From an uncultured Deinococcales bacterium (GTDB lineage Bacteria > Deinococcota > Deinococci > Deinococcales > JAAFIG01): DNA of 20,499 bases. Below the pieces are notes generated by a model. It was given only the letters and a program-made list of their open reading frames with translations, was not told where the DNA came from and did no database searches. How positions within the stretch are numbered: the first letter of the stretch is position 1; every line of letters begins with the position of its first letter. The stretch lies in assembly GCA_964247135.1 (NCBI GenBank), contig CAXTTL010000068.1:1-20499 (forward strand), given 5' to 3'. This document shows, piece after piece, positions 3,619 to 20,499 of the stretch. The position numbers were made by a program, and so were the translations under genes.

Positions 3619-3738
3619 TTTGCGCCTGACATTTGAGGTTCGCATCAAAAATGGCGCTCTCGCTCGAGTTGTCCGCTGCTGTAACGTCAAATTCATAATT
3701 TTGTAACACCAAACAGCTTGGCTCGAATTGGCGCGGGC

Positions 3739-3764
3739 TATAATGCAAACTTGAGTTGAAGGAG
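3739..3764 (+). promoter_or_regulatory. TATAAT -10 box and GAAGGAG SD of the LLM gene
   Basis: Consensus TATAAT at 3739-3744; SD just upstream of ATG 3770. No convincing -35. Confidence 0.55.
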
Positions 3765-3769
3765 ACTGA

Positions 3770-5336: not shown

Positions 5337-5357
5337 GATTGGCTTTCTGGGGTGAGA

Positions 5358-5687: not shown

Positions 5688-5725
5688 GAGTTTCCTTTCA
5701 AACGGGTTTCTCGAGCCTTGGGGTT

Positions 5726-7183
5726 TTATTGAACGGCAATCTCGTTTCCAAGCCGCACGACCTCGGTCGCCAGCAAATCAAAATCTGCGGTCACGCTGCG
5801 GTGGTTGGCTATCGCAATCCGCAAGCAATACTGACCGTGAAGCGTGGTGTACGACGGCACGGCAATGCCTTTTTCGTGAAGTTGCATCAAAATTTCTTTG
5901 TTCAAGGCGTTCAAAGCTTCAAGCTCGAGGTGTCCTGGGTTGTACCGAAAACAAACAATATCCAAACCAATCGGAGCCATCATCTCGAGCTTTGGGTCTG
6001 CTGCGACCAGTTGACCAAAGTAATGCGCCTGTTCGACATTGCGCTCGATCATGCGCCCGAACCGCGCCAGACCGTGTTCTTTGATCGACATCCACACCTT
6101 CAACGCCCGAAATTGCCTGGAAAGCTGCAAGCCGTAATCGCTAAACCAATTGCCTGCCGCCAAGCCTCGGGTTTGGATTGCCAGGTACTCTGGGGTCAGG
6201 GCAAAGGTCTCGCGGTGGGCGGTTTTGTTACGCACCAGCACGCAACCCGCCTCGAACGGAATGTGCAACCATTTGTGCAAATCGAGCGCCACCGAATCGG
6301 CGCGTTCGATACCAGCAAGTTTTGGTTTGACATTTTCCGCCAGCACCGCCACCGCCCCAATCGCGCCGTCCACATGAAACCAGAGCGTTTCGCGTTCGCA
6401 CAGATCAGCCAGTGCATTCAAGTCATCGATTGCTCCTGTGTTGATCGTTCCCGCATTGCCAATCACGCATAACGGTTGATGCCCCGCATTTCGGTCTTCG
6501 CTGATGGCTTGCTCGAGCGCCGCCAGGTCAATCGTGTAATCGGGGTTGACCGCAATTTTATGCAAACTCGAGTTGCCCATGCCCAGCGCCTCGATGGCTT
6601 TTTGGACGCTGCTGTGAACCTCGCTCGAGGCATACACCATCAAGCGTCCCGTCGCGCCGTGCATTCCCAATTCCCGAACGTTAAAACCCGCACCCTCGTT
6701 TCGAGCCACCGCGAGCGCCGTAAAGTTTGCCATGCTACCGCCGCTGACCAGCAAGCCGCTGGCATCGGTTGGGAAGCCCATCATGGTTTTAATCCAGTCG
6801 ATCACCTGGGTTTCGACCAAATTGGAAACGTGGTTGCCGCCACCAAGGTTTGAGTTCATGATTGACGCCATAAAATCCGCCAATGCGCCAAGCACCGTGC
6901 CGTTGCCCATGTACCAAGCCCAGAACCTGGGGTGGGTGTTTCCCATCGGGTAGGGCAGAATGCTCTCTTTAAAATCTTGGTAGGTGGACACTGCCCCTTC
7001 AGGCTCGAGCGGTGCGGCAACTTGAAACTTCGCCGCGACTTCATCGGGGACGGGTTGCCAGACTGGTCGTTCGCGCAGGGTTTGCAGGTGATGAAACGCA
7101 TCGTCGATCATCTGGTGTGCCAGCGCCCGCATGTCATCCCAATTTTCGGGGTCGAGCGTCTCGGGCTTTTGAGATTTTTCCAT
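5726..7183 (-). CDS. Group II PLP-dependent amino-acid decarboxylase (aromatic-L-amino-acid/DABA decarboxylase-like)
   Basis: HPRFWAW, SGGSMANF, HSSVQKA, GTINTGAIDDL, WFHVDGA, DSVALDLHKW (PLP Lys), SRQFRALKVW. Start ATG 7183 follows AAGGAGG; an extended -10 TGnTAAAGT lies at 7219-7227. Confidence 0.95.
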   Translation of the reverse strand: MEKSQKPETLDPENWDDMRALAHQMIDDAFHHLQTLRERPVWQPVPDEVAAKFQVAAPLEPEGAVSTYQDFKESILPYPMGNTHPRFWAWYMGNGTVLGALADFMASIMNSNLGGGNHVSNLVETQVIDWIKTMMGFPTDASGLLVSGGSMANFTALAVARNEGAGFNVRELGMHGATGRLMVYASSEVHSSVQKAIEALGMGNSSLHKIAVNPDYTIDLAALEQAISEDRNAGHQPLCVIGNAGTINTGAIDDLNALADLCERETLWFHVDGAIGAVAVLAENVKPKLAGIERADSVALDLHKWLHIPFEAGCVLVRNKTAHRETFALTPEYLAIQTRGLAAGNWFSDYGLQLSRQFRALKVWMSIKEHGLARFGRMIERNVEQAHYFGQLVAADPKLEMMAPIGLDIVCFRYNPGHLELEALNALNKEILMQLHEKGIAVPSYTTLHGQYCLRIAIANHRSVTADFDLLATEVVRLGNEIAVQ

Positions 7184-7376
7184 TTGTTGCCTCCTTGAAT
7201 TTATCGGGTTCAAAAATGACTTTAACAGTTCAGAATTCAATTGCCATAAAATGGTGAAGCCTAAAAAAATCGGTACCTTGGGTTTGGATCATCGGACCAG
7301 TCTTGTGGCTCGAGGTGGCTGCAAAAATTTGAAACGCCCGAGGCTGCCTTTTACAATCTCGAGCATGGTTGATCCG

Positions 7377-7832
7377 TTAAAGGACGTACCTCAAACCAAG
7401 CCCAATTTGATACCCAAAGGCTGGCACAAAAAGCAACCTGGATTCCAGGTAAAGCGACAAGGCGTTGGTGAGCGTGTAACGAAAACCGATGATCGCGCCA
7501 AAGCCAAAAACTTGCGCGGGGCTGATGAACAGCGTGGCTCGAGGACCCGCATAAATTCCAAAGTCAGCAATTTGATAGGCGACCATCGCTTCCAGGCTGA
7601 CGCCAAACAGAAAAGTGCCAGCGGCAAAAGTGCCCTCAATGTCAGTTCGAGCGTCAATGTCAAGGTCTTTGCCCAATTTCACCAGCTTTTCGACGCCCAA
7701 GTTCACGCCAAAACCGAAAGCCACGCCATCACTGAACGATGAGGTGATGCCGGCGCCGACCGTAAATTTTTGAGCGCCCGCCAAGCTCGAGAAACCGATG
7801 ATGGCGACCAAAATCAGAAACCATTTCTTCAT
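7377..7832 (-). CDS. Small secreted protein, probable 8-stranded outer-membrane beta-barrel
   Basis: Signal peptide MKKWFLILVAIIGFSSLAGA-Q, alternating Gly/hydrophobic strands and a C-terminal QIGLGLRYVL resembling a beta-signal. ATG 7832 follows AAGGGGG. Confidence 0.75.
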   Translation of the reverse strand: MKKWFLILVAIIGFSSLAGAQKFTVGAGITSSFSDGVAFGFGVNLGVEKLVKLGKDLDIDARTDIEGTFAAGTFLFGVSLEAMVAYQIADFGIYAGPRATLFISPAQVFGFGAIIGFRYTLTNALSLYLESRLLFVPAFGYQIGLGLRYVL

Positions 7833-7973
7833 AAAACCCCCTTGAAGCGTTCCCTTTGTTGAGTCTGTTTTGTTGGCGACCACCCACCAATCTGGCAGTG
7901 GTTTGAGCTGAGGTTCACTGTCTGATTTCGAGCGCAAGCAACATGCTTTCTCGAGTTTTGCACTTATGTTTTC

Positions 7974-8004
7974 ACTCGAGCTTCAATTGGTTTGAAGCTC
8001 GAGT
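7974..8004. repeat. 13-bp inverted repeat ACTCGAGCTTCAA-ttggt-TTGAAGCTCGAGT (hairpin)
   Basis: Perfect 13-bp arms. A T-rich tail follows only on the + strand, so it is not a canonical terminator for the flanking minus-strand genes. Confidence 0.6.
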
Positions 8005-8067
8005 TTTGTTTGCCGCCTTGGTTGATCGGATTGGGGTGCTCAATCAAGACGCAGGACAGCAAGTTTT

Positions 8068-8439
8068 TTAGAGTTGCGTCCAGGTTTCTGTGCCCTCTTT
8101 GGTATCGTTGTAATCTTGCCAGTACCCGCTCAGTTGCGCGTCGTTGATGATTTTTAAAAGGGTCACGGTTGGAATGCCCCTGTTTTGTGATGCGATGGCG
8201 ATGCTCGTGCCAAGATCGTTGGCGATGCCCGTTTCACCCTCGCCGTAATCGACACGGTAACCATCGCCGTAATCGGTGACAACCACCGTGTCAGAAAATT
8301 TGCTGCCATCTGGGTTGACGCCTTTGACCACGTACTTTCCGGCAAAATCGTAACGTGTTTGAGCGCCAACGTGTGACAAGCCAATGCCGAGAGACAGGGT
8401 AGCGATTCCGATCAAAGCCAATTTGTAAACGTTTTTCAT
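8068..8439 (-). CDS. Small secreted beta-rich hypothetical protein (resembles the LIC10280-like family)
   Basis: Signal peptide ending VGA-Q; AGKYVVKGVNPDGSKF, LSGYW and GTETW. AAAGGAG SD. The family name is from memory and was not searched. Confidence 0.75.
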   Translation of the reverse strand: MKNVYKLALIGIATLSLGIGLSHVGAQTRYDFAGKYVVKGVNPDGSKFSDTVVVTDYGDGYRVDYGEGETGIANDLGTSIAIASQNRGIPTVTLLKIINDAQLSGYWQDYNDTKEGTETWTQL

Positions 8440-8508
8440 GACATCTCCTTTAAAATATTCGCGAGTGGGTTTGGGTTGACGGGCGGACGGAACGCAAAGC
8501 GAAAGTAT

Positions 8509-8517
8509 TCAGGTCAT
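8509..8517 (-). other. SD-led minigene ATG-ACC-TGA (Met-Thr-stop), copy 1
   Basis: Minus strand reads GGAG-aaaacc-ATGACCTGA in the leader of the 8439 gene. Confidence 0.45.
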
Positions 8518-8628
8518 GGTTTTCTCCGTTCTAAAGCTTGTCTTTTGGTAAAACACTTTTGGAGCCTCGAGTTTTTGTATTGAGCTACATTTATTGGGTT
8601 TTTAAGGGCGGTTCGTTTGAACTGAGAT

Positions 8629-8662
8629 CAGTTTGCAAAATCTTGCGTCGCACGAGCGTCGC
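8629..8662 (-). promoter_or_regulatory. Activator-dependent promoter P1: GCGACGC-tcgt-GCGACGC-N9-CAAACTG
   Basis: Heptamers at 8656-8662 and 8645-8651 (11-bp period); -10-like box at 8630-8635. Same spacing as P2 and P3. Confidence 0.8.
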
Positions 8663-8776
8663 GTGGGTTTTTTAGGCTCGAGAAACGAGATTTCAGGTAC
8701 GCCATTCACGCCCGCATGACCCATCGCCCATGTTCATTTCTTGTTCTTGCTCGGGAAGGTTGGGTTGTGGCTCGGG

Positions 8777-8968
8777 TTAGCGGGTCAGGCTGGCGTTGGT
8801 GCTGACCTGCGAAAGTCCAAAAATCCAGTGCTTGGCGATCTCGAGAATCTCGCTCAGGGCGTGGCGCAGCGCCGCACTTTGTGCTACACGAATTTCTTTG
8901 AGGAGGGCATGGTTTTGGGCTTCGCGTTGAAGGCTGGCAATTCGGAATTCCACTTCATGGTTTTTCAT
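8777..8968 (-). CDS. 63-aa hypothetical helical protein
   Basis: MKNHEVEFRIASLQREAQNHALLKEIRVAQ...; AAGGAG SD 6 nt before ATG 8968, just downstream of P2. The track's extension to 9250 runs through the promoter and the pseudogene. Confidence 0.7.
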   Translation of the reverse strand: MKNHEVEFRIASLQREAQNHALLKEIRVAQSAALRHALSEILEIAKHWIFGLSQVSTNASLTR

Positions 8969-9004
8969 TTGCTGCTCCTTTTGTCGCTTGTTCTTTCTTG
9001 AACA

Positions 9005-9062
9005 CAGTTTGCAATTTGGCGCGTCGCATGGGCGTCGCACGTGTATTCGCGTCGCGCGACGC
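9005..9062 (-). promoter_or_regulatory. Promoter P2: GCGACGC-ccat-GCGACGC-N9-CAAACTG, plus an upstream palindromic heptamer pair
   Basis: Heptamers at 9032-9038 and 9021-9027; -10-like box at 9006-9011; extra GCGTCGC-GCGACGC palindrome at 9049-9062. Confidence 0.8.
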
Positions 9063-9141
9063 CAGCAAAAATACTGTGCAGGATTGATTTCTCGAACGTA
9101 TTGATACCAAACCATCATTGCGCCGAAGTTGATGTTTGGTG

Positions 9142-9306
9142 ATCGATGTCTGGCTTCAACCGCTAGAGACTGCCAATATGCAGCTCGAGTTTTACAGCAA
9201 AAAGCGTTTGTCTGAGACAAACGCTTTTTGCTAACGGTGTTGGCATTCAAAAACGATTGGGTTTCTCGAGATCAGCTTGACAATTTATTCTGAGCGGACA
9301 CCGATT
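9142..9306 (+). pseudogene. Decayed 5' fragment of a BTAD-STAND regulator paralogous to 15735..18644
   Basis: About 75% nt identity by hand alignment to 15735-15900, with a 25-nt exact match (9255-9279 = 15849-15873). ATG is replaced by ATC, there is a +2 frameshift near 9199-9204 and TGG has become TGA at 9291. The remnant reads LAFKNDWVSRDQLDNLF*ADTD versus LAFKADWVSRDQLANLFWSDTD. Confidence 0.9.
9196..9232. terminator. Perfect 18+1+18 palindrome shaped like a bidirectional intrinsic terminator
   Basis: AGCAAAAAGCGTTTGTCT-G-AGACAAACGCTTTTTGCT: A5 tract, stem and T5 tract on both strands, about 120 nt downstream of the HEAT gene stop. Confidence 0.7.
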
Positions 9307-9337
9307 TGCGTGGGATTGAAATTGAAAACTCGAGTGT

Positions 9338-9346
9338 TCAGGTCAT
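9338..9346 (-). other. SD-led minigene ATG-ACC-TGA (Met-Thr-stop), copy 2
   Basis: Minus strand reads GAGGT-gcaacc-ATGACCTGA; the SD overlaps the TGA stop of the HEAT gene. Confidence 0.45.
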
Positions 9347-9355
9347 GGTTGCACC

Positions 9356-10540
9356 TCATCCCTGCAACACTCGAGCCGCCGCCATTCGCACCTCGAGCTG
9401 TTCGTGGTTGAGAAGCGGTTGAACGGCGTGTTTGCCCGTTTCGCCAAGCGTGCAAAGTTGGTCGGCGGCGGCACTGCGAATGCGCCAATCGCTGTCTTGC
9501 AGCAACTCGAGCAGCGTGGTTTGGTCATGGTTGCCGAGCCTGCGAATCGCGGCGATGCGCACGGTTCTGGCGCTGGCTTGCAAGGCACGAGTGCGGTTGT
9601 TGCCCGCTGCTCCCGCCCGTATCGCTGCGGCTTGCACTTCGGGGTTTTGGGTTTGGTCTGCCAGTCGCTCGAGGTCTTGGCTGTACTGGTGACTGATGGC
9701 GGGTGTGCTGGCGGCTTGAATGGCTTCGAGTTGCAATTGCGCGTCGTGCATCGCCAGGTCGGTCAGGCTCGAGAGGTTTGGAGATTCCGTTTTGGTGGCA
9801 AGCTCGAGCAACCAAGCCCGAGTCTCGCGGTTGAGTTTTTCCCAAGCCTGACTGAGCGCTGCAATGATTGATTCAGGTTGAACCTCGAGCCATTCTCGGG
9901 CGCGGTCTGCGAACGCGCCACGCAATTCGGTCAACCAAAGTTCGGTGTGATGCTCGAGGTTTGGGACGATGCCCGAAAAGTGCTCGGCTGCCAACGACAA
10001 GCGCAAATTCACGGCGCTCGAATCGTCGCTCGAGACTCTCCAGGCGTTCGCCACGGCTTGCGCACGGTCTGAATCGTTGCCCAGCAAACTGCGCTCGAGG
10101 TGTTCACGGATTGTGGGGTCGTCGTCCTGCACCAACCTCCCGAGGGCACACAGGCGCTCGTTGGTGTCATCGGACAAAAACCAAATTTGCTCGAGCGCCG
10201 TTGTGACGCGTGAATCGGATGGCATGGCACCCAGGGCTGCCAGCAGGTACAGGCGCATCTCTGGGCTGAAAACATGCTCGAGTTCGGAGCGCAAGACCGC
10301 AATCAGGTCGCGGCTTTGGTGTGACCCCAAAGCCAGCGCGGCTTCGGGGTCGATGGCGATGGCTTCGAGTACACTGAGGCGGGTCAAGAGGTCGTTGGAT
10401 TCGATGGCGGCGAACAAATCGGCGGCGGTCTCGAGTCGCAATTCATCCTCAATTTCTTCAGCCCCCAAGGCTCGAGCGCTGGCAAATTGAGCCTCAAGCG
10501 CCGTCTCGAGTTGCTGGGCAATTTCAGAAGGCTGCATCAT
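9356..10540 (-). CDS. HEAT-repeat (PBS-lyase-like) alpha-solenoid protein
   Basis: Repeated units PEMRLYLLAALG, PEVQAAAIRAG, RTVRIAAIRRLG, LLQDSDWRIRSAAADQL and LLNHEQLEVRMAAARVL. ATG 10540 overlaps the upstream stop (ATGA). Confidence 0.88.
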   Translation of the reverse strand: MMQPSEIAQQLETALEAQFASARALGAEEIEDELRLETAADLFAAIESNDLLTRLSVLEAIAIDPEAALALGSHQSRDLIAVLRSELEHVFSPEMRLYLLAALGAMPSDSRVTTALEQIWFLSDDTNERLCALGRLVQDDDPTIREHLERSLLGNDSDRAQAVANAWRVSSDDSSAVNLRLSLAAEHFSGIVPNLEHHTELWLTELRGAFADRAREWLEVQPESIIAALSQAWEKLNRETRAWLLELATKTESPNLSSLTDLAMHDAQLQLEAIQAASTPAISHQYSQDLERLADQTQNPEVQAAAIRAGAAGNNRTRALQASARTVRIAAIRRLGNHDQTTLLELLQDSDWRIRSAAADQLCTLGETGKHAVQPLLNHEQLEVRMAAARVLQG

Positions 10541-11667
10541 TTGGTTGCGCCCCCAAACACGACCTTGCGCCTGGTTTGTGGCGCGGCTGGACCACAACCG
10601 CAACTGCCTTGCGCATCAAAAGACTTGTTGACCGTGCCAATGGTGTTCTCGAGCGCGTTGAACGCATCGGTGTCGGTTCCCAGGTTCACGCCTGCCAGCG
10701 CGGAAATAAAATCGATGATGCTCCAGGTCCATTTCTGTCCAAAGTACCCAAACCTCGAGTGCGAAAGCGCCAGTTCAATGCCCACCCGTACTTCAACGCG
10801 GCTGGTCTGTTTGATGTTGAGGGTGAGTTTGGTATCGGCATTGTCGGCTTTGTCACCGGCGGCGTTGCGATCACCAATCGTGCGGCTGGCATCAAAACGC
10901 AAGTTGTTGTACGACTGCTTGCCGATCACAATTTCGCTGGGGGCAATGGTGATCGGAAACCCAACTTGTACCACAGGTCCGGCAATCACATTGCCACCAA
11001 AGCGTTGCAGCAGGGCGTTGGCGGCTTTGGTGAACGGAATCAGGTCAATCACGTTCAGTGTGCCTTCGATACCTGGGGTCAGTTGAATGTTGCCTTTGGA
11101 TTTCCATTCGCCGTTGCGGGTTTGAAACATGTCAAAATCGAGTGTCCCCGCATTCGAGGTGCGTGGTTTGTCCGAGCCTTTTGCCGAAGAACCGCCTGTG
11201 CTGGCTCGAGAGATCAGAAAATCGAGGAAAGTCTTGAGGATGTTGATGCGGAATTCGCCGTTGCCTTGCAGCCTTGGAAAGATGCGCGGCGGGAAGATGT
11301 CGTAATTCCAGGTCAGGGCGAATTCCAAACCGACCTGAATGCCGCCCGCAAAACCGTCCTGCGTGCCGTCGCCGTACTTTCCAGCCCAGTTGAGCTGAAC
11401 GGCGGGTTGGTCTGGGTTGTCAAAATTGCCACCGACTTCGGTGTTCATTGCCCAGGCTGGACCGCAGATGCCAAAGAAATAACTCCAACGCACGTTGACA
11501 ATCACATTGATAAAAAAACTTTCAAATCTAACGTCGATCAGCACACGTTGCACGTTTGAACCTTGCACGCTGGCACGCAATGTGCCCAGGGCGGGAATGA
11601 TTGCAAAGCCCTGACAGATGTCCAAAGACGGTGAGGTCTCGAGGGTGGTGATGGCAAGATCGGGCAT
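10537..11667 (-). CDS. Hypothetical beta-strand-rich protein, 376 aa, no recognisable family
   Basis: AAGGAG SD and operon position. Long alternating strands (GGIQVGLEFALTWNY, RVEVRVGIELALSH), no signal peptide, C-terminal GSCGCG and a basic tail. Confidence 0.8.
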   Translation of the reverse strand: MPDLAITTLETSPSLDICQGFAIIPALGTLRASVQGSNVQRVLIDVRFESFFINVIVNVRWSYFFGICGPAWAMNTEVGGNFDNPDQPAVQLNWAGKYGDGTQDGFAGGIQVGLEFALTWNYDIFPPRIFPRLQGNGEFRINILKTFLDFLISRASTGGSSAKGSDKPRTSNAGTLDFDMFQTRNGEWKSKGNIQLTPGIEGTLNVIDLIPFTKAANALLQRFGGNVIAGPVVQVGFPITIAPSEIVIGKQSYNNLRFDASRTIGDRNAAGDKADNADTKLTLNIKQTSRVEVRVGIELALSHSRFGYFGQKWTWSIIDFISALAGVNLGTDTDAFNALENTIGTVNKSFDAQGSCGCGPAAPQTRRKVVFGGATK

Positions 11668-11690
11668 GATTTAACTCCTTTGGATTGAAT

Positions 11691-13115
11691 TTAAACGGGC
11701 AAACCCAAGACCAGCGATTGACTGTCGTCCTCGTGAATCACGACAAACACCAGTCGTCCCTCATCGTCGCTGTGCATTGCCGAATAACCGACGCCGATAA
11801 AGTCGCTGACTGGGCTGGGATGGTTGACCAGCAGATCGCCGGTTTTCAAAATCGTGCGCGACCCGCTGCCGTTGCTGGCGAGCAACTCGATGCCCGCGCT
11901 GGTTTGAACCATGAAAAACGTGATGCCGTCGGTCGCCAGTTGCGGCGTGGCGATGGCTTTGACCACATTGCCCGTCGGCGAACGATCACCCGATTGCATC
12001 ACCACGCGGTTGTTGACCACCAATGTATGCTGGCTTCCGTTGTTGACCACGTGCGCAAAGCTCGAGTTTGGTCCACTGCGCGGGGCATAACAGGTCAGTC
12101 CCGAAGCTCGAGAGGGGCTTGAACGCAAGCCGCTCGAGATCGAGCTAGCTTCGACCCGCAGGTTGCTGGGCGAGCCTGTCCTGCGGGTATTGAGCGAGAC
12201 GGTGTTGAGGTTGCCGCGCAAAACGGCAGTTTGTTGTGTGCCTTGGGCATACTGGTTGGCGAATTCTGCGGCGGGGGTCAGCATGGCTTGCAGCACAAAT
12301 TGTCCGCCGTCGTGCAGGCTGATTAAGCCAAATTGCGAGATGACTGGGGCGCTGGTGCTGGCTGCCAAGCTTGTACCGCTGGTCACCACCAAGCTGGCGT
12401 TCTCACCCTCGAGTCCGCGCAGCAAGAACACGCCCTGACGCACGTCTTTGGTGACCTGACCGGTGTTGTGATAGTAATTGGCAACAAAGATCAGGTCATT
12501 GTCGTGAAAGTTCAGGTCGCCGAACATGCCCGCAAATTCGTGACCATCGGTGTTGAGCACATGTTCGTGTAAGACTCGAGTCAAGCCTTGACCCAGGTCG
12601 CAGTAAATGGCTTGCATTTTCATGGGGGCGGTGCCGCCGTCAAAACTGCCGTGCTCATCGGTGGTGTTGTAATTCATCTCGGTTTCGACCCTGACCACCA
12701 GGGCAAGCTGCCCTTTGGCGTTGATGTCGTGGTTGTTCAGTTCGACCACGCGCCGCCCGTCGAGCGTGTCCCCAATCCGCACGATTCGGCTTTCACCCGA
12801 AACTCGAGGGTTGGCAGCGCTGAGGTCGAGTTGCAGGGCGTACAGACCAATTCGGTCTTCACTGTCCATCGCGCCGTACACCACCCGCCCGTTGGCGTCG
12901 ATGGCGGCATCCAGACGCAGGGTCTGACCTCGAGTTCCACCCGGCAACAGGTCGGTGTTGTGTTTGATCGAAAAGAACTGGTAGCCGTTGGGCAACACAC
13001 CGTCCGTGCCCGGGGTTGGCGGCGCGGGGTTGGGATTCGTGGCGCAGGCACTTAAGAGTGCGCCCGAAAAGGTCAAACCCGTGGCTTTGAGAAAATTGCG
13101 GCGATCAATGTTCAT
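11691..13115 (-). CDS. Tat-exported lipoprotein, probable beta-propeller with NxxGxxAF-like repeats
   Basis: MNIDRRNFLK twin-arginine motif plus lipobox LLSA-C and a Pro-rich linker. Repeats IDANGRVVY, INAKGQLAL, LHDGGQFVL and SDDEGRLVF alternate with VRIGDTL, MQSGDRSP and LKTGDLL. GGAGG SD before ATG 13115. Confidence 0.85.
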   Translation of the reverse strand: MNIDRRNFLKATGLTFSGALLSACATNPNPAPPTPGTDGVLPNGYQFFSIKHNTDLLPGGTRGQTLRLDAAIDANGRVVYGAMDSEDRIGLYALQLDLSAANPRVSGESRIVRIGDTLDGRRVVELNNHDINAKGQLALVVRVETEMNYNTTDEHGSFDGGTAPMKMQAIYCDLGQGLTRVLHEHVLNTDGHEFAGMFGDLNFHDNDLIFVANYYHNTGQVTKDVRQGVFLLRGLEGENASLVVTSGTSLAASTSAPVISQFGLISLHDGGQFVLQAMLTPAAEFANQYAQGTQQTAVLRGNLNTVSLNTRRTGSPSNLRVEASSISSGLRSSPSRASGLTCYAPRSGPNSSFAHVVNNGSQHTLVVNNRVVMQSGDRSPTGNVVKAIATPQLATDGITFFMVQTSAGIELLASNGSGSRTILKTGDLLVNHPSPVSDFIGVGYSAMHSDDEGRLVFVVIHEDDSQSLVLGLPV

Positions 13116-13130
13116 AAATGCCTCCAAAGC

Positions 13131-15422
13131 CTAATTGCTGCCCCAACGCGTGCCGTTGGGCGCGGTGTTGACGCTGCCGAATTTGGTGTTGCGTTCGCCG
13201 GTCGGCAGGTCTTCCTCATGCTCGAGCACCAAATTCCAGCCCGGGTGCAGGTTCAGGTCGTATTTGAAGGTGTTGTCCACCAGTCCCGCGCAGGTTTGCG
13301 TGCCAACAACCGTGGTGGCTGCCTCGAGATACCACCAGCTCAGTTTCTCGAGTGAACCGTCCGAGTCTTCGTTGGTGATTTCGACTGGGCTTTTGAAAAC
13401 TGTTTTGTTCCAGATTTCGAGGTTGAGTGCGCCGTATTTGCTGGCGGGTGGTGTCACGGTGATGACTCCCGTGCAATCCGCTCGAGCGGGGTTGAGGGGC
13501 TTCAGGAGGCTTGAGGAGACGGTTGTTGGAAGGCTGGCAGTGACTTCGCCATTCGCACCAAGTGGTGTGCTCAAAATCGTTTGACCGCCCACCGTCAAGT
13601 GCAGGCTGTTGTTGGCAAAGGCAGCTCCAACCGAACCGCTCAGGCTGCTCGAGGTGCTGCCCGTGTCAGGCAAGCCTGGTTCTTTGTCGGCTTCAAAAAA
13701 CCATTCCGAACCCGCTGGCAGTGTGCCCGAAGTGTGCTGGATGGTTTCGTTGTCGTTTTTCAGGGTCACGGTTTCGATCAGCAAATTCCAACCTGGTACA
13801 AAACTGATGTTGTAATCGTGTTCCTCGCCCGCGCCGTCGCCGCTCGGGCAGTTTTCCTGCCCCGTCACCGTGACCGCGCTCGAGGCGTACACCCAATTGA
13901 CGGTAAACCCGCGTCCGCCCACCGCAATCACGCCCAGGGGGGTGCCGTTGCGGTCTGGCTCGAGCGAGGCTTTGACGCCCGTCGGGTTGGCGGGCGTTGA
14001 GGTCACACCGGCGCTGCAACCTTGGGTCAACTCGAGGGCTTCCAAAGCGGCGGCGTCAACGGTGGCGGGCAAGGTCAGGTCAAACTCGCCCGTGGCACTG
14101 AGAACGCCTGTGGTCAAGCTGACGCCCGCATCAGATTGGAGCTTGAGGCTTGCCGCCAGCGTGTCCGTCCAGCCGCCCAACTTGCCGTGCATTCGCGTGG
14201 CGCTGCTGCCTGCATCCTGACCACCGAACTGCCCTGGGGCAACCCCAACGCCGACATCCTCGAGCCTGGTGAGCCATTTCGCCTCGCTTGGAATGCCGGT
14301 TTGATTTTTCCAGGTGGTGGTTTTTAAAAGGCTGTCCTCGAGACGCTGCACGAGATTCCAACCCACCTGCAAATTCAGGTTGTACTGCGTGATGAAGGTC
14401 TCATCGCCGCTGCCGCATTTTTCTTGTCCAGCAATATTGACAGCGCTGGCTGCATACCACCAAGCCGTGGTGCTCGAGTAGGACACCAAGAAGGTTTTGC
14501 CGATGGCGCTGTTGCCCCTGAAAACCGAAAGTCCAAGTTGACCGAGCAGGGCGTTCGGGTTGCTGGCATTAAAATTCCCTTGGCATCCAGCCTCTTTTAA
14601 GCCCGACGCCACACCGAGCAGGGCGGCGTTCGGGGCGGCTGGCAGAGGAATGTTAAAAATGCCGGTCGCTCCGGTGGCAGGGATCGCGGTTGGGGTCAGG
14701 TCGTTGGATTGACCCGTGCCAGGTTTCTCGAGTTTTAAAACCAAACCGTACCCCTGCTCGCCGAGCGTGCCTTGAACTCGAGCGATGGTGCTGCCCGTAT
14801 CTGTACCTTTGGCTGCCGCCAGGTCGTTGGAGGTGCTCACGCCCCAAGTGACGGGCGTATCCAGGGGCGCGTTGCTGAAACTGGTCTCTTTGGCATCGGT
14901 CAGCACCAAATTCCAACCTTGCTGCAAATTCAGGTTGAATTGCGTGTCGTTGCCGATTCTCGAGGTTCGGGTTTTTGCCGATGGACAAACCAGCGTACCG
15001 TTGATGGTTACAGGCTCTTCGGCGTAAACCCAACGTGCCAGTTGATTGCCAGTTTTTGCCACCAGTTCACCCGCCGGTTGCCCAGCAATCTCGAGCGACG
15101 ATCCGACCCAGACCGCCTCGGCATCGGCGGGTTGCACGGTGACGCCAGTGCAGCCCGTTGGGGCTTCAAAAACCGGTCCGAGCGCGTTTACATCTGGCAA
15201 ATCGGGTAGGTTTAAATTGAAGGTGCCACCAGTGATGCCAGTTTCACTCAGCCTAAAAATGGGGTCGCTCGAGAGTGACAGCGCCACGGCTTTGCTGCCG
15301 GCGGGAACTGCAAAGCCCTGAACGTTGCCGCCAACGTTCAAGCCGGTGCTTGGATTGCCGCCGCCGCCGCACGCCACCAGCAACAGCAGCATCCAGGGGG
15401 TCAGTCGTTTGAGTTTTTCCAT
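13131..15422 (-). CDS. Lipoprotein, 763 aa, with four tandem ~185-aa two-cysteine domains
   Basis: Lipobox LLVA-C-GGGG. The motif (Y/F)xxxxxxGWNL recurs with WN codons at 14910, 14355, 13785 and 13233 (185, 190 and 184 codons apart). GGAGG SD. Confidence 0.9.
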   Translation of the reverse strand: MEKLKRLTPWMLLLLVACGGGGNPSTGLNVGGNVQGFAVPAGSKAVALSLSSDPIFRLSETGITGGTFNLNLPDLPDVNALGPVFEAPTGCTGVTVQPADAEAVWVGSSLEIAGQPAGELVAKTGNQLARWVYAEEPVTINGTLVCPSAKTRTSRIGNDTQFNLNLQQGWNLVLTDAKETSFSNAPLDTPVTWGVSTSNDLAAAKGTDTGSTIARVQGTLGEQGYGLVLKLEKPGTGQSNDLTPTAIPATGATGIFNIPLPAAPNAALLGVASGLKEAGCQGNFNASNPNALLGQLGLSVFRGNSAIGKTFLVSYSSTTAWWYAASAVNIAGQEKCGSGDETFITQYNLNLQVGWNLVQRLEDSLLKTTTWKNQTGIPSEAKWLTRLEDVGVGVAPGQFGGQDAGSSATRMHGKLGGWTDTLAASLKLQSDAGVSLTTGVLSATGEFDLTLPATVDAAALEALELTQGCSAGVTSTPANPTGVKASLEPDRNGTPLGVIAVGGRGFTVNWVYASSAVTVTGQENCPSGDGAGEEHDYNISFVPGWNLLIETVTLKNDNETIQHTSGTLPAGSEWFFEADKEPGLPDTGSTSSSLSGSVGAAFANNSLHLTVGGQTILSTPLGANGEVTASLPTTVSSSLLKPLNPARADCTGVITVTPPASKYGALNLEIWNKTVFKSPVEITNEDSDGSLEKLSWWYLEAATTVVGTQTCAGLVDNTFKYDLNLHPGWNLVLEHEEDLPTGERNTKFGSVNTAPNGTRWGSN

Positions 15423-15505
15423 CGCTCTTACCTCCGATGATCAAATGTTCTTGGACAGCTTTGAGACAAAACTCGAGGATCAATTTTGGTCGTTCTGGGT
15501 TTCAA

Positions 15506-15516
15506 ATCACCTCCTT
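15506..15516 (-). promoter_or_regulatory. Full-length SD AAGGAGGTGAT inside the operon 5' leader
   Basis: 11-nt perfect complement of the canonical 16S 3' end, about 85 nt upstream of the lipoprotein ATG, which has its own GGAGG at 15431-15435. Confidence 0.55.
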
Positions 15517-15600
15517 CGAGATTGCGACTTGCCTTGACCTGCACTCCAAAATGGCTTCGGCTCGAGTGGATGTCATGACTTGGCTTATCTGAACTGGCTT

Positions 15601-15634
15601 CAGTATGCCAAAAGGGGCGTCGCATGGGCGTCGC
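15601..15634 (-). promoter_or_regulatory. Promoter P3: GCGACGC-ccat-GCGACGC-N9-CATACTG
   Basis: Heptamers at 15628-15634 and 15617-15623; -10-like box at 15602-15607. It lies in the divergent gap next to the BTAD regulator. Confidence 0.82.
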
Positions 15635-15714
15635 GTAGGGTTAAGCATGTGCCACTCGAGTTTGTCTTGTTGCGCCATTCGTTCGCTGGAGGCTCTCAAT
15701 CGTTTGGCGATTGC

Positions 15715-15723
15715 TGTTAAACT
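15715..15723 (+). promoter_or_regulatory. Extended -10 (TGtTAAACT) of the regulator gene
   Basis: Located 11 nt upstream of ATG 15735. Confidence 0.5.
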
Positions 15724-15734
15724 GATACGGGGAT

Positions 15735-18644
15735 ATGGGAATTTACGTTCAACTGCTCGGGACTGCCAAAGTACAGCTCGAGTCTCACAGCGTTCCGTTT
15801 GTCTCGGACAAACGCTTTTTGCTGCTGGCATTCTTGGCGTTCAAAGCTGATTGGGTTTCTCGAGATCAGCTTGCCAATTTGTTCTGGTCTGACACCGATT
15901 CGGTTTCGGCTCGCAAGAATTTACGGCATCTGCTCAGCCGCACCCGAAATCTGGACTTTGCGCAACTCGAGGGGCAGGACGACGTTCGCTGGTTGGTGCA
16001 AACCGACGTGGCATTGTTTCAACAACACTTGGGGGCTGGCGATTGGGAGCAAGCCATCGCGCTTTATCAGGGAAATTTACTTTCGGGTTTAACCAGCGAT
16101 TCGAGCGGGTTTGAAGATTGGTTGGGGCAAGAATCGGAAACCTTGCAAACCGCTTACCGCGAGGCGGCGTTAAACCACGCCAAGCAACTCGAGGGGCAAA
16201 ACCGTTTTGATGACGCGGCGGCACTGCTGGCGAAGGTCTTGAAGATCGATTTGCTGGCTGAAGACATCGTTCAAGTCTACCTGCGCGTGGCAGGTCAGGC
16301 GGGGCATCGGTTGGAAGCTTTAAAAGTCTTTGAATCGTTCAAATCCATGTTGTCTCTCGAGCTTGGTTTGCTGCCGCTCGAAACCACCTTGCAATTGGCG
16401 GCGGATTTGCGGCTCGAGTCCAAAGCCGCCAGTCAAGCACCCGTGGAAATGTTGCGAAATTTCCCAACGCACAGCACCCCGTTCGTGGGTCGGGATGTGG
16501 ACTTGAGCGAAATTGCGGCGTACTTCGAGCAACCCGAGGTGCGCCTGATGACCTTGATCGGCACGGGCGGCATCGGCAAAACCCGTCTCGCCATTCAGGT
16601 GGCACTCGAGCAAGCCAAGTATTTTTCTGACGGCGCGGTGTTCGTGCCGCTCAGTGAAATTGCCGCCAGCGAAAACATTGTGCCAGCCATCGCTCAAGCC
16701 CTGGATTTCAGCTTCTCGAGTTTTGATTCGCAAGACTCGCAATTGCAAAAATTTCTGGGCGACAAGCACTTACTCTTGGTGCTCGACAACCTCGAGCATC
16801 TGCTGGACGGGGCAAATTCCTTTCTGGAATTGCTGGCGCACTGTCCAAAGTTGCGGATTTTAACGACCTCCCGCGAGGCGCTCGATTTTCAGGGCGAGTA
16901 TTTGGTGGACGTGCTCGGTTTGGATGTGCCAAAGGACCCAAACACCGAGCAGATCGAAATGTACGACGCGGTTCAACTCTTTTTGCGCAGCGTCAGGCGC
17001 GTCAACCCGCAGTTCAGCCTCGAGCGTGAAGCCAAACCCTTTGTGCTGCAAATTTGCCAAATGTTGCAAGGTTCGCCTCTGGCAATCGAACTGGCAGCCA
17101 ACTGGTTGCGCGTGCTCGATGTGCAGGCGGTCAAAAACGAGATTCAAAAAAGCCTGGACTTTTTAGAGATCAACCAGCCCAACATTGCCCATCGCCACCG
17201 CAGTATGAGGGCGGTGTGCAACTCGAGTTGGGTTCGGCTGGAAGCCAACGAGCAAGCCACCCTGGCGTGCCTGAGCTTGTTTCGTGGTGGTTTCAGCGCC
17301 CAGTCGGCGGCTCGAGTCGCCAATGCCAACCCTGGAATGTTGTTGCGGCTGGTCAACAAGTCCTTGGTGTCAAAACGTGAAAGTCGTTTTTTCATGCACG
17401 AAGCCTTGCGGCAATTCGCGGCGGAAAAACTTGGGGCACCAGAAAAAGATGCCGCGCTTCACAAATTATCTTTGCTCGCCCAAGAGTGGGCACAGGCTGT
17501 TTACATCAACGAAACCACGCCAAAAGATTTGGAAAGTTGCCAAAATTTCGAGACTGAATATGAGAACATTGATGTCGCCCTCGAGTGGTCTTTTCAAACG
17601 ATGCCGCGATTGTGCGCCGAAATTGTCTGTGCGCCAGTCTATTTTTGGTACGCGAGCGCCAGAAAACAAGTGGCGATTGCCTGGATCAGCGCCCTGCTCG
17701 AGTTGCCCGAATTGAAAGGGCGTGACGCCCTCCGTAGTAAACTTCTCTACAGCCGTTGCGTGCTGGGCGACGGTGCCAGAGATTACGAACTTTGCCTGAT
17801 CGACGCGAATGTATCGCTCGAGATCGCCATCGAAATTGCCGATTTGGATCGCCAAGCCTGGGCATGGTGCGGCATCGGCATTTGCCAATTTGAGTTGGGC
17901 AGAACCAGGGCGGCGCTCGAGTCGAATCAAAAAGCTTGGAAGTTGAGTCTTCAGGTGCAAAACCAGAACGTTCAAGCCTACTGCCAGACCGAACTTGGCA
18001 ACATTTACGTTGTGCTATCCGAGTTTGAACTTGCGGCTCAAGTCTACGGGCAGACCATCAGCCGTTGCCTCGCCACGGGCAACCGCCGCAGCTTAGCCCA
18101 TGCGCACACGTTCATGGCGGACGCTTACGCCAGACAGGGCAAGCTCGAGCTTGAACAGGAGACGCTCGAAAAGGCGGCGGTCATTTACCGAGGGTTTAAC
18201 GATGTCAGCAATTTGTGCGGCATTTTACTGCGACTCGCCAGCGTCAATGTTCAACGCAAAAATCTGGTTGTCGCCGAACAGACGCTGCGTGAGGCGAGCA
18301 AACTCTGTCAACAATTGCACGAGGTCAGGTTTTACTTTCGCCTGTTTCATCTTTTTGCGATCATTGCAGGGCAACGCGGTTTACCTGCCAAAGCCTTGAG
18401 GCTGCATTTCATTGCCTCAGACTGGTCGGCGCAACTCGAGGCAGAGGTTGACGTGCATGAGCTTGATTTCAACCGTTTTGATCTTGAGCCAATTCAAGCT
18501 CCTTACAGCCAGCTCGAGATTGAACAGATCAAATTGGAAGCCAGCAACCTCAGTGCTGGGCAAACCGTGCAATACGCGCTGGGTCAACTCGAGATGTTTG
18601 ATGACCCACCCCTTAGCCAAAGCCTTGCGGTGCAGGCAATTTAA
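15735..18644 (+). CDS. AfsR/SARP-like activator: wHTH, BTAD, NB-ARC (STAND ATPase) and TPR domains
   Basis: VQLLG..., LLAFLA...VSRDQLANLFW, ARKNLRHLL; BTAD TDVALF, ALYQGNLL, FEDWL; FVGR, Walker A GTGGIGKT, Walker B LLLVLDNLEHL, TSRE, GSPLAIELAA; C-terminal TPR-like helices. Confidence 0.95.
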   Translation: MGIYVQLLGTAKVQLESHSVPFVSDKRFLLLAFLAFKADWVSRDQLANLFWSDTDSVSARKNLRHLLSRTRNLDFAQLEGQDDVRWLVQTDVALFQQHLGAGDWEQAIALYQGNLLSGLTSDSSGFEDWLGQESETLQTAYREAALNHAKQLEGQNRFDDAAALLAKVLKIDLLAEDIVQVYLRVAGQAGHRLEALKVFESFKSMLSLELGLLPLETTLQLAADLRLESKAASQAPVEMLRNFPTHSTPFVGRDVDLSEIAAYFEQPEVRLMTLIGTGGIGKTRLAIQVALEQAKYFSDGAVFVPLSEIAASENIVPAIAQALDFSFSSFDSQDSQLQKFLGDKHLLLVLDNLEHLLDGANSFLELLAHCPKLRILTTSREALDFQGEYLVDVLGLDVPKDPNTEQIEMYDAVQLFLRSVRRVNPQFSLEREAKPFVLQICQMLQGSPLAIELAANWLRVLDVQAVKNEIQKSLDFLEINQPNIAHRHRSMRAVCNSSWVRLEANEQATLACLSLFRGGFSAQSAARVANANPGMLLRLVNKSLVSKRESRFFMHEALRQFAAEKLGAPEKDAALHKLSLLAQEWAQAVYINETTPKDLESCQNFETEYENIDVALEWSFQTMPRLCAEIVCAPVYFWYASARKQVAIAWISALLELPELKGRDALRSKLLYSRCVLGDGARDYELCLIDANVSLEIAIEIADLDRQAWAWCGIGICQFELGRTRAALESNQKAWKLSLQVQNQNVQAYCQTELGNIYVVLSEFELAAQVYGQTISRCLATGNRRSLAHAHTFMADAYARQGKLELEQETLEKAAVIYRGFNDVSNLCGILLRLASVNVQRKNLVVAEQTLREASKLCQQLHEVRFYFRLFHLFAIIAGQRGLPAKALRLHFIASDWSAQLEAEVDVHELDFNRFDLEPIQAPYSQLEIEQIKLEASNLSAGQTVQYALGQLEMFDDPPLSQSLAVQAI

Positions 18645-18704: not shown

Positions 18705-20499
18705 TCAGCCAAAACGCAGTTGGCGAATCACATCATCCAACTCGAGCATTGTAATTCCATTCAAACTTTCGGTCTTGACTCGAGTGTTGATCAGGGCGGT
18801 TGCACGGGCATAATCTGACTTGCTGGTTTTGGGATGCTGTCGCACGGTCTGGAGGAGACGCAGCGCAAACGCGTCGTCTTTCGGCGGCAGGTACTCTATC
18901 CAACTTAGCAACAGCGCCAAGGTTAAAGGCAAGGCTTGCGCCTCCCAGGCGATTCCAAGCGCTTGGGAGAGATAGGATTTGGCTTTGTTCTGGTCGGCTT
19001 GTGACAGCGCAATCTGGCATAAAATCATCAGCGAATCGCTGTGGTTGGCAAGAGAAGATTGACTTTTTTGTTGCTCGAGCGCCAAGGCTTTTAAAGCATG
19101 GGTTTCGGCTCGCTCGAGTTGCCCAAGCCCAAAGCAGCATTCAGCCAAGGAATTCAGCACGAAAGGCACTTGACTGAGTTCGCCCGCATTGGTGGTTAAC
19201 TCGAGGGTTTCTTGCCAGAGGCTCAAGGCTTGCTCGACCTCGCCAGTGTCTAAGAGCAAGGTTGCCAAGCCGTTCAAGTTGAACACCGCGCCGATGTGGT
19301 TGCCGAGCTTTTTGAACAAATAAATGGCTTCTTGGTAAATCAGTTTGGCTTGCGCGGTGTTGCCCGTTAAATCCTCAGAAATTGCCACCCAGCCCAGAGA
19401 CACGGCAATCAGTCGTTCGTTCGCCAAGGCTCGAGCCTCGCGCAACGCGTTCTGACGGTACGCCAGGGCTTCGTGGTGCTTGCCCAAAGATGTGGCGGTC
19501 GTGCCGAGCATTCCCAAGCCCCAGATGATGGTTTCACGCTCCTCGAGCGGCATCAGCAAACGCAGACCTTTTTCGGCAAGTTGCACCGCCGTCTCAATTT
19601 CGCCGCGCCGTTCAAAAAATTTACTCTGATGGATCAGCAGTGTCCCCAAGGTCGCGTGATCGTCTGGATTTTCCTCAACAAGTTCGGTTATCGCCTCCTG
19701 GAACATCGCAATCGCTTCCTGATAACGCCCTCGAGCATCAAAAAACCGCATCAGGGCTTCAGTGGCAAGCTTAATAAAATGCCAACGTCGCTGCTCGATA
19801 GCCCAGCGCCACGCCTCGTGAATATTCTCAAAATCCAGCTCGAGCATTTCCAGCGCGGCTTTGGACTGCGCACCCCTGATACCCTCGAGTCCCTGTTGCA
19901 GGATTGAGAAGTAATATTGGCTGTGATCGAGTTTGGCTTGCATGGCTTCCTGGGGGTTTTCACAGAGTTTATCCTGCATGTATTGATGCAGCAAACGGTG
20001 ACGACGGTAACGACCCTGACTGTTTAAACTTAAAAGCGATTTGTCGATCAGGCTGCCGAGCACTGGCAAGGGCACGTGGGCGGCTCGGCGCACGGCTTCC
20101 TTAAAAAATCCGCCCCTGAAGACCGCCAAGCGCCGTAGCGCCTGCTGTTCTTCGCTGGTCAGCAAGCCCCAGGAGTGCTCGAAGGCGGCACGGATGCTGC
20201 GGTGGCGTTTTGCAAGGTTGACACTGTTGCTCGAGAGAAAATCGAGGTTCTGGGCAATTTCTTTGGCGATATCCTGCACTGGCAAAGCCCGCACCCATAC
20301 GGCTGCCAGTTCGATGCCCAACGCCAAACCGTCAACCAGACGGCAAATCTCGAGCACCTGCGCCAAGTTGTCATCGCCCAGTCGAAAATCTGGGCGCACC
20401 CGACGGGCGTGCTGGGCAAAAAGTTGCACAGCCTCGAGGCTGGGGATTTCGTTTGGTTTGACCTCGCTCATCTCGGGAACGGCGAAGGCATCGACGGGC
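18705..20499 (-). CDS. Second NB-ARC-TPR STAND protein, C-terminal part (5' end outside the window)
   Basis: The frame stays open to the window edge (PVDAFAVPEMSE...). EAVQLF, ICRLVDGLALGIELAA, RHRSIRAAFEHSW and LAVFRGGF are collinear with the 15735 gene and followed by TPRs. Confidence 0.93.
   Translation of the reverse strand, partial: PVDAFAVPEMSEVKPNEIPSLEAVQLFAQHARRVRPDFRLGDDNLAQVLEICRLVDGLALGIELAAVWVRALPVQDIAKEIAQNLDFLSSNSVNLAKRHRSIRAAFEHSWGLLTSEEQQALRRLAVFRGGFFKEAVRRAAHVPLPVLGSLIDKSLLSLNSQGRYRRHRLLHQYMQDKLCENPQEAMQAKLDHSQYYFSILQQGLEGIRGAQSKAALEMLELDFENIHEAWRWAIEQRRWHFIKLATEALMRFFDARGRYQEAIAMFQEAITELVEENPDDHATLGTLLIHQSKFFERRGEIETAVQLAEKGLRLLMPLEERETIIWGLGMLGTTATSLGKHHEALAYRQNALREARALANERLIAVSLGWVAISEDLTGNTAQAKLIYQEAIYLFKKLGNHIGAVFNLNGLATLLLDTGEVEQALSLWQETLELTTNAGELSQVPFVLNSLAECCFGLGQLERAETHALKALALEQQKSQSSLANHSDSLMILCQIALSQADQNKAKSYLSQALGIAWEAQALPLTLALLLSWIEYLPPKDDAFALRLLQTVRQHPKTSKSDYARATALINTRVKTESLNGITMLELDDVIRQLRFG

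Follow-up and report, generated by a model that had tools for sequence, protein, structure and literature searches.

Tandem-heptamer promoters beside an AfsR-like STAND regulator in an uncultured Deinococcales bacterium

Promoters and regulator at the locus

We describe a 20,499-nt stretch of DNA from an uncultured Deinococcales bacterium (GenBank contig CAXTTL010000068.1; hereafter, the window), in which three promoters of the same build lie beside a gene for a predicted regulator of the STAND class. The window is the whole of contig C68 of a draft genome of 5.09 Mb (386 contigs, 52.6% G+C, 84% completeness). This genome is labeled G000 and related genomes G001 onward; C denotes a contig, L a locus, and g5 a genus. 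The promoters, P1 to P3, face a gene for a 123-amino-acid (aa) exported protein, a gene for a 63-aa protein, and an operon headed by a 763-aa lipoprotein gene, respectively. The elements on which the argument turns are the following.

8629..8662, minus strand: P1; heptamers 8662-8656 and 8651-8645, nine nucleotides (N9), CAAACT 8635-8630, predicted start A 8623
9005..9038, minus strand: P2; heptamers 9038-9032 and 9027-9021, N9, CAAACT 9011-9006, predicted start A 8999
9049..9062, minus strand: extra heptamers 5' of P2; inverted GCGTCGC 9062-9056 (17 nt before the box) abutting GCGACGC 9055-9049
15601..15634, minus strand: P3; heptamers 15634-15628 and 15623-15617, N9, -10-like CATACT 15607-15602, predicted start A 15595
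15735..18644, plus strand: 969-aa predicted AfsR-like "large SARP"; winged helix-turn-helix (wHTH) and BTAD domains 1-235, NB-ARC/NOD ATPase ~250-475, C-terminal TPR

Each promoter opens with two perfect GCGACGC heptamers four nucleotides apart. This 18-nt pattern, GCGACGC-N4-GCGACGC (GCGACGCNNNNGCGACGC), is matched exactly at 3 places in the window (8645-8662, 9021-9038, and 15617-15634), each time on the minus strand, and in none of 100 dinucleotide-preserving shuffles of it. Exactly nine nucleotides later comes CAAACTG at P1 and P2 and CATACTG at P3, completing the build GCGACGC-N4-GCGACGC-N9-CAWACTG at 8629-8662, 9005-9038, and 15601-15634. A first-pass annotation of this DNA had reported these coordinates, the 11-bp period, the N9 spacing, and the CA(A/T)ACTG box, and pattern searches and reverse-complement reads reproduce them exactly. 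The word CAGTTCA, said to be common to P1 and P3 at one offset, is indeed found 4 nt past the final G of CAWACTG at both, and P2 reads CAAGAAA there. P3 sits 100 bp from the start codon of the regulator gene and faces away from it. A generic sigma-70 scan returned no -35/-10 pair at P1, P2, or P3. Among public sequencing runs, a search with window 8000-16000 listed none of RNA; the single run that it listed is of unknown kind and shares 0.07 of the words.

The tandem arrangement is rare in the genome. With both strands counted, the 5.09 Mb contain 952 heptamers, a frequency from which about 0.09 tandem sites would be expected; 4 pairs are observed at spacing 4, and each other spacing from 0 to 30 yields 0 or 1. 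The fourth perfect box, G000:C53:13904(+), also continues with N9 and CAAACTG, making the downstream build uniform at 4/4 genome sites, and all 4 boxes are intergenic and face a gene. The start predicted for this fourth promoter is near L017:1545. None of the 6 one-mismatch matches in G000 continues with N9 and CAWACTG. The non-random distribution that had been anticipated for a genome scan is thus what we find: 4 perfect sites, all with the same -10 spacing.

The position of the box relative to the predicted start recalls a known operator. The base seven positions after the hexamer is an A within a CA dinucleotide at 4/4 G000 sites. If transcription starts at that A, the two heptamers would occupy -39..-33 and -28..-22; counting in the conserved base that precedes each of them gives a 22-bp box at -40..-19, in the same register as the afs box of AfsR. 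The source on AfsR describes the afs box as a 22-bp element from -40 to -19 built of two 11-bp repeats, each contacted in its first 8 bp only, and gives for SARP target promoters in general direct repeats with a period of 11 or 22 bp and a 3' repeat that lies 8 bp from the -10 element (PMC10936776). At the level of sequence, the window's promoters follow this pattern, and the SARP-like geometry proposed in the first-pass annotation agrees with the afs box in its inferred position.

Architecture and fold of the 969-aa protein

A Pfam scan of the 969-aa protein finds BTAD (3.9e-09, above cut-off), NB-ARC (4.1e-10, residues 264-475), and TPR_12 (7.2e-10), and the translated sequence preserves both Walker motifs, A (GTGGIGKT) and B (LLLVLD). 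The same scan gives no hit to the receiver domain Response_reg; the wHTH stands at the extreme N-terminus. A profile built from 74 homologues matches AfsR (8k60_I) with an E value of 5e-72, aligning profile positions 48-856 to chain positions 25-863; it also matches EmbR (2fez, 2.5e-23) and the AfsR SARP domain (8hvr_I, 4.6e-21). An AlphaFold2 model of residues 1-250 has a predicted local distance difference test (pLDDT) score of 93.3 and shows three strands, three helices, and a hairpin, followed by a helical bundle. All six of its best PDB folds in Foldseek belong to AfsR (8k60, 8hvr) or EmbR (2fez, 2ff4), with template-modeling (TM) scores of 0.61-0.69 at 17-19% identity.

By profile and fold, the protein therefore has an N-terminal OmpR-type wHTH followed by a helical BTA domain, as in the SARP family, and then the NOD/NB-ARC P-loop ATPase and TPR region of a "large" SARP/STAND protein. 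This is the wHTH-BTAD-NB-ARC-TPR order that had been read from the translation, and it gains structural support from the model of the N-terminal 250 residues, which adopts a SARP-domain fold and matches AfsR and EmbR best. Homologues are named [quoted passage not shown] by the Joint Genome Institute. We classify the protein, from sequence and model, as a predicted "large SARP" of the AfsR type. It scores 58.4 bits (E 3.3e-16) against the AfsR equivalog model NF053617 of NCBIfam, whose cut-off is 1430 bits; the score is so far below that cut-off that the protein is a distant relative of the same architecture and no AfsR orthologue.

Conservation of the box and its association with the regulator

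We searched 40 related genomes with the 18-nt pattern; 18 of these are other genomes of the same uncultured Deinococcales family. The scan of relatives that had been suggested locates the box in 15/18 of the family genomes, at 1 to 9 sites each, and the pattern read backwards gives 0 or 1 match per genome. The window together with L003-L018 and L023-L050 makes up 40 distinct in-family sites; L001, L002, and L019-L022 are out-of-family loci, and L051-L054 were left out as duplicates. A [TC]A...T hexamer lies exactly 9 nt after the second heptamer at 35/40 in-family sites. Three of the remaining 5 have the hexamer at 8 nt, 1 is the first pair of a triple repeat, and 1 (G007:C6) has the look of a chance match within coding DNA; among the out-of-family hits, 0/6 have the hexamer at N9. 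With one mismatch allowed, hit numbers in G008, G010, G011, and G015 stay at the level of the reversed control, and of 11 such loci inspected, G010:C406 alone resembled a real site.

The hexamer reads CAAACT, CAGACT, or TAAACT in the window's genus and TATACT, TAGAAT, TAAGGT, or TAAAGT in g5. These relatives support the earlier reading of CAWACT as a -10 box with an unusual first base. Conservation extends to the spacers (CCAT, TCAT, TGGT, TGAT) and to the bases that precede the first heptamer (cat or cac), and the conserved unit is therefore effectively an 11-mer.

Orthologous genes retain the box across genera, although the flanking DNA diverges. The gene for the 763-aa lipoprotein is boxed in G000, G001, G002, G005, and G012, with orthologues of P3 ahead of the same gene in G001 (L013), G002 (L036), G005 (L029), and G012 (L046). 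The 63-aa protein gene is boxed in G000, G001, G003, G004, and G005; in the last four, orthologues of P2 precede genes for homologues of 62-64 aa. P1 has an orthologue in G001 (L030), and the family of its 123-aa exported protein is boxed in G000, G001, G002, G012, G013, G014, and G016, the homologous g5 genes having TATACT, TAAGGT, or TAAAGT. Box targets in g5 also include more exported proteins and lipoproteins, as well as a small protein followed by a gene for ~413-444 aa.

In the light of this conservation, it is hardly credible that the boxes play no part in regulation, whether as a mobile or structural repeat, of the repetitive extragenic palindromic (REP) or miniature inverted-repeat transposable element (MITE) type, or as chance matches in GC-rich DNA. 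Genomes outside the family do yield chance matches to the pattern. Such an origin is, however, already contradicted by the retention of the box at orthologous genes between diverging flanks, and it accords poorly with the absence of matches in 100 shuffles and with a copy number of only 4, all intergenic, facing genes, and at a fixed distance from a -10-like hexamer.

Many sites carry a third heptamer. It lies exactly 17 nt upstream of the box at 14/39 family sites and 16-18 nt upstream at 17/39, counts that allow up to one mismatch and therefore leave its orientation unresolved. Individual sites show it inverted (GCGTCGC) before the 63-aa gene, before the protease gene (L017 1467-1473), and at the G006 and G007 sites, and direct in g5. 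At G013:C13 (L023), a 24-bp heptamer-bearing unit is repeated three times ahead of the final pair.

The box is associated with the regulator in two ways: by gene neighborhood and by co-occurrence. Regulator orthologues (39-63% identity) adjoin a box in G002:C543, G003:C287, G004:C130, G005:C63, G007:C101, and G012:C88 (twice), with ~65-125 bp from gene end to heptamer; three genera are represented. In G014:C75, a match to the DNA-binding domain (40554-40865) lies 71 bp from the box at 40936, and the 89% orthologue in G003:C44 is cut by the contig end. The expectation that the motif would be found next to BTAD genes is thus upheld in seven relatives. For co-occurrence, a close homologue means identity of 50-89% over the whole protein or of 59-70% in the DNA-binding domain; the counts over the 18 family genomes, which are kin, are descriptive.

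Close homologue and box both present: 14/18 (G010's site with one mismatch)
Close homologue and box both absent: 2/18 (G011, G015)
Close homologue not found, box present: 2/18 (G008, 91% complete; G018, 57% complete)
Close homologue present, box absent: 0/18

The regulators linked to the box also share a putative DNA-reading element. The stretch (S/A)ARKNLRHLLSR(T/V)R is unchanged in 8/9 aligned box-linked regulators from three genera, whose overall identity falls to 39-50%; the exception, G012b, reads -SRKNLRHLLSRVR. By its position in the model (helix 56-71), ARKNLRHLLSR is the predicted recognition helix of the wHTH. Within G000, the exact word is confined to the window's protein; a fragment on C126 has ARKNLRHLIGR. 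Paralogues linked to other heptamers differ in the recognition helix.

G000 holds 29 BTAD matches, and several of these genes have repeats of their own nearby. Exact direct repeats of at least 7 bases in intergenic DNA number 139 at period 11, compared with 67 at period 10 and 71 at period 13. Of the period-11 repeats, 13/139 (9.4%) lie within 600 bp of a BTAD gene, versus 1.35% of intergenic bases; for all other periods from 8 to 25 combined, the figure is 16/1561 (1.0%). Most of the 13 have the form heptamer-N4-heptamer, followed 8-10 bases on by a TAnnnT-like hexamer. Restricting the comparison to the 300 bp upstream of genes gives a weak enrichment: 11-bp self-similarity of at least 9/11 is found in 4/21 full-length regions ahead of BTAD genes and in 203/4140 ahead of all genes. 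Since many boxes lie downstream of their regulator genes or farther from them, the 600-bp test over all intergenic DNA is the better one. The heptamers and positions found near paralogues are listed below.

GCAACGC: C174:6804 and C76:15856
GTGACCA: C27:21613 and C45:24997
TCAGACC: C185:4196
TGGAACG: C5
TGAAACG: C79
Period-11 pairs near BTAD genes: C5:22513 and 23769; C79:11394 and 11729; C181:3207 and 7705; C341:3244; C30:28258
Further repeat words near BTAD-STAND genes: CTGAAAWT, GGTCACG, and GCGACAC

Both regulators beside GCAACGC boxes share the helix ARRNLRRELHRLK. Together, these sequence data suggest one private operator per paralogue.

A different owner of the boxes has to be considered. 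Boxes of OmpR/PhoB-type proteins also use tandem direct repeats phased at 10-11 bp over the -35 region, and tandem 11-bp repeats at -40..-19 are accordingly not exclusive to SARPs. Another winged-helix protein of this type, such as a response regulator, might bind the boxes, with the STAND gene a bystander or itself a target; G008 and G018 would fit, as would contig C53, which carries the fourth box and no BTAD gene. We nevertheless judge this very unlikely, given that the box adjoins an orthologous BTAD-STAND gene in three genera, that one recognition helix is kept in exactly the box-linked regulators, and that intergenic repeats of period 11, and of no other period, are enriched ~7-fold within 600 bp of BTAD genes.

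Proposed mechanism, regulon, and paralogues

We consider it probable that P1, P2, P3, and the C53 site are operator-promoters of a class-II-like SARP-family activator, served by the neighboring 969-aa AfsR-like STAND protein. In the mechanism we propose, two N-terminal wHTH-BTAD (SARP) domains would bind head-to-tail, one per GCGACGC heptamer; paralogues with the same recognition helix could bind likewise. The bound pair would cover -40 to -19, the usual place of a -35 element, and would there retain both sigma region 4 and RNA polymerase at promoters whose sole element is a weak -10 (CAAACT or CATACT). Gating of this activity, in response to a signal, would fall to the NB-ARC ATPase and the TPR part. 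The output would be a small, conserved cell-envelope and secreted regulon consisting of the lipoprotein operon, the 123-aa exported protein, the 63-aa protein, and a lipoprotein trypsin-like protease. For AfsR, two SARP protomers are described as lying side by side and gripping sigma region 4 together with parts of the core enzyme, which replaces the -35 contact, and the SARP dimer as forming on DNA (PMC10936776). At the present locus, the motif, its geometry and conservation, the gene neighborhood, and the fold are observations, from which binding, an activating effect, the starts, and gating by a signal are inferred; neighborhood and the conserved recognition helix lend binding and activation indirect support.

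The same protein might instead bind mainly as a repressor or a dual switch, occluding a promoter that works from its -10 alone. A box spanning -40..-19 is compatible with this, as is the near-consensus -10 of g5 (TATACT), which might fire unaided, and Deinococcus promoters generally lack a recognizable -35 motif, according to the part of the source available (PMC4007540). On the other hand, SARPs figure as activators in the work on AfsR, a protein that activates from precisely this position by holding sigma region 4 (PMC10936776). In addition, the -10 in the window's genus is weak (C at position 1, 3-4/6 matches), as expected of an activator-dependent promoter. We regard a mainly repressing or dual role as unlikely.

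Several observations weigh against the activator reading. The Pfam wHTH model Trans_reg_C reaches an E value of only 0.028, below its cut-off, and nothing relevant came out of searching the PDB with the single sequence of residues 1-260; the SARP assignment therefore rests on profile and fold. GCGACGC is an odd palindrome (GCG-A-CGC), so the orientation implied by "direct repeat" depends on its central base and the conserved flank (caT/caC). Since Deinococcus promoters are generally without a -35, a missing -35 is weak evidence of activator dependence, and g5, where the -10 boxes come near consensus, allows for repression or a dual role. The related genomes are kin and not independent samples, and 2 of them have the box with no close homologue found. 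Finally, the helix is common to more than one paralogue (G003 and G012 have two each, and G000:C126 a similar one), so that any of these might be the protein acting at a given promoter.

Comparison with characterized systems places the activator reading within a familiar design. The protein resembles AfsR of Streptomyces coelicolor (8k60, 8hvr, 8jke) in the order SARP (wHTH and BTAD)-NOD/NB-ARC-TPR, in near-full-length profile homology, and in SARP fold, and the box resembles the afs box of the afsS promoter in its two 11-bp direct repeats with a conserved 5' 8 bp, its place at -40 to -19, its lack of a -35, and its suboptimal -10. It differs from AfsR in the 17-19% identity of the SARP domain, in a GCGACGC heptamer, in an uncultured Deinococcales host and not an actinomycete, in targets that are lipoproteins, exported proteins, and a protease instead of afsS or secondary-metabolite genes, and in a regulator that adjoins its targets; unlike the afs box, many sites have a third heptamer 16-18 nt upstream. 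The small SARPs (ActII-ORF4, DnrI, RedD) share the 11-bp-phased repeats, with the 3' repeat ~8 bp from the -10 (PMC10936776, available part) compared with 9 nt from the 7-bp core here, and likewise have the activator gene within the cluster. They serve antibiotic clusters, whereas Pfam reveals no biosynthetic genes in the window, and the protein described here adds NB-ARC and TPR. EmbR of Mycobacterium tuberculosis (2fez, 2ff4) has the SARP-domain fold (TM 0.61-0.65, profile E 2.5e-23) but an FHA domain in place of NB-ARC and TPR.

In the Deinococcus group, the accessible text on D. deserti reports a CheY-SARP response regulator with unknown targets (PMC3564903), and "SARP" in another Deinococcus paper is, in the part available, an unrelated use of the word (PMC1274311). 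No described operator of an AfsR-like protein from this group was found in the literature searched, whose coverage did not extend to subscription journals. The novelty claimed in the first-pass annotation was too strong: the operator-promoter design is that of a textbook SARP and the mechanism known from cryo-electron microscopy of AfsR is unchanged, and the differences lie in the lineage, the heptamer, the targets, and the frequent third heptamer. SARPs are known almost only as actinomycete switches for antibiotic production; here, the output would be lipoproteins, small exported proteins, and a secreted protease. What the locus adds for STAND-class activators, of which few signals or targets are known, is an operator open to testing, a delimited regulon, and predicted start sites.

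The genes downstream of the promoters, and those near them, are the following.

8068..8439, minus strand: P1 target, 123-aa exported protein with signal peptide ...SHVGAQ; 5' leader ~184 nt
8777..8968, minus strand: P2 target, 63-aa helical protein without signal peptide; AAGGAG ribosome-binding site
9356..15422, minus strand: P3 operon, four tightly packed genes; 5' leader ~173 nt
13131-15422, minus strand: P3 operon, 763-aa lipoprotein with lipobox LLLVAC and four internal repeats
11691-13127, minus strand: P3 operon, 478-aa Tat-signal lipoprotein (RRNFLK and LLSAC)
10537-11667, minus strand: P3 operon, 376-aa protein with no obvious signal
9356-10603, minus strand: P3 operon, 415-aa HEAT-repeat protein (Pfam HEAT)
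7377..7832, minus strand: 151-aa exported beta-barrel-like protein (OMP_b-brl 0.0044, below cut-off)
18705..20499, minus strand: second BTAD-STAND paralogue, C-terminal TPR part (TPR_MalT 1.9e-18), convergent with the regulator and running off the contig

Gaps and overlaps between the P3 operon genes are 3, 23, and -67 nt. The C53 box precedes a lipoprotein gene whose product has an SdrD_B-like domain and a trypsin domain (Pfam Trypsin, 3.2e-50). This protease and the HEAT protein of the P3 operon are the only targets with an above-threshold family in the Pfam and NCBIfam scans; NCBIfam has no match to the P3 operon proteins, and the 123-aa protein has a weak match to the NCBIfam LIC10280 family (3.1e-06, below its cut-off) and falls in the protein Atlas into hypothetical-protein clusters only. 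The description of the targets as mostly exported fits those of P1 and P3 but not P2's 63-aa protein or the 376-aa and HEAT-repeat proteins of the P3 operon. The 151-aa gene may be co-transcribed from P1; the gap ahead of it (7833-8067) contains no box, and genes for its homologues (MKKWFLILVA...) have their own box in G012 and G014 (L032 site 7677, L049 site 4937).

Some g5 targets look like leaderless mRNAs, with the ATG 7-9 nt past the hexamer: in genes for MKKIL... exported proteins, it follows at 7 nt at 5/6 sites and at 9 nt at the sixth. In D. deserti, 60% of mRNAs are leaderless, and 94% of starts have a -10 motif directly upstream (PMC4007540). At L005, L007, L008, L010, L024, and L026 of g5, a box with TATACT stands before a gene for an exported protein of ~620-640 aa (complete copies 624 and 641 aa); the gene starts 7-9 nt past this hexamer, and its mRNA is apparently leaderless.

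Other leaders are long. The leader of the 123-aa gene measures ~180-200 nt in genus g1 versus 22-30 nt in g5. That of the lipoprotein operon (window 15423-15595; L013, L029, L036, L046) is kept at ~160-180 nt in two genera and contains a conserved internal GGAGGTGA ~85 nt past the predicted start. Rfam gave no match in window 7000-16000 on either strand at E values up to 0.1, and the long 5' leaders thus hold no known riboswitch or leader element. A 26-codon upstream open reading frame in the P3 leader was rejected, as the relatives' indels there are not multiples of three.

For the second paralogue of the window, the missing N-terminus is probably supplied by the 446-aa fragment with which C126 ends (12762-14054), a contig join inferred from relatives: the same convergent pair is intact in G003:C44 and G005:C63, so the window contig and C126 probably abut. 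In G005:C63 (L031), the regulator is missing between P3 and the convergent paralogue, leaving ~100 bp from P3 (L031 14618) to the gene at 14726-17713. The same contig has instead a 989-aa paralogue beside P2; identity to the window's protein is 77% over its first 247 residues and 53% over the rest, a comparison that suggests unchanged DNA specificity and a sensor part that has diverged.

Sensors with different NB-ARC and TPR parts but one helix and one box (the A and B paralogues of G003; two in G012) may integrate signals at the same promoters. Such paralogues could possibly act as mixed dimers on the tandem repeats, and the third heptamer 16-18 nt upstream may recruit a further protomer of an oligomerized STAND protein. 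A joint reading, which we offer tentatively as possible, is that each genome carries ~30 AfsR-like STAND sensors with private heptamer pairs (for example, GCGACGC, GCAACGC, GTGACCA, TGAAACG, TGGAACG, and TCAGACC), in which helix and heptamer would co-vary and shared boxes would integrate signals. Paralogue-specific heptamers are in any case material on how SARP wHTH domains choose DNA; if the joint reading is true, the genome would be a natural dataset for reading the SARP DNA-recognition code.

Direct repeats phased at 11 bp also occur at G000:C28:2169-2215, C131:5305-5340, and C8:14130, where the word is TGTGGATAAC(TT). It reads like the DnaA-box consensus, and these places may be candidate replication-origin regions, which we presume from that likeness. 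The left part of the window (767-7240) holds ordinary genes, none of which has a box: an EamA transporter, a CMD-family protein, a GntR-aminotransferase (MocR-type) regulator, a luciferase-like monooxygenase, a small P-loop kinase-like protein, and a pyridoxal-dependent decarboxylase. The word CTCGAG stands out for its frequency, inside and outside coding DNA, both in this genome and in its relatives (for example, at window 7972-8003 and 15479-15484), and two CTCGAG words make up the hairpin at 7974-8004, which lies between the 123-aa gene and the 151-aa gene.

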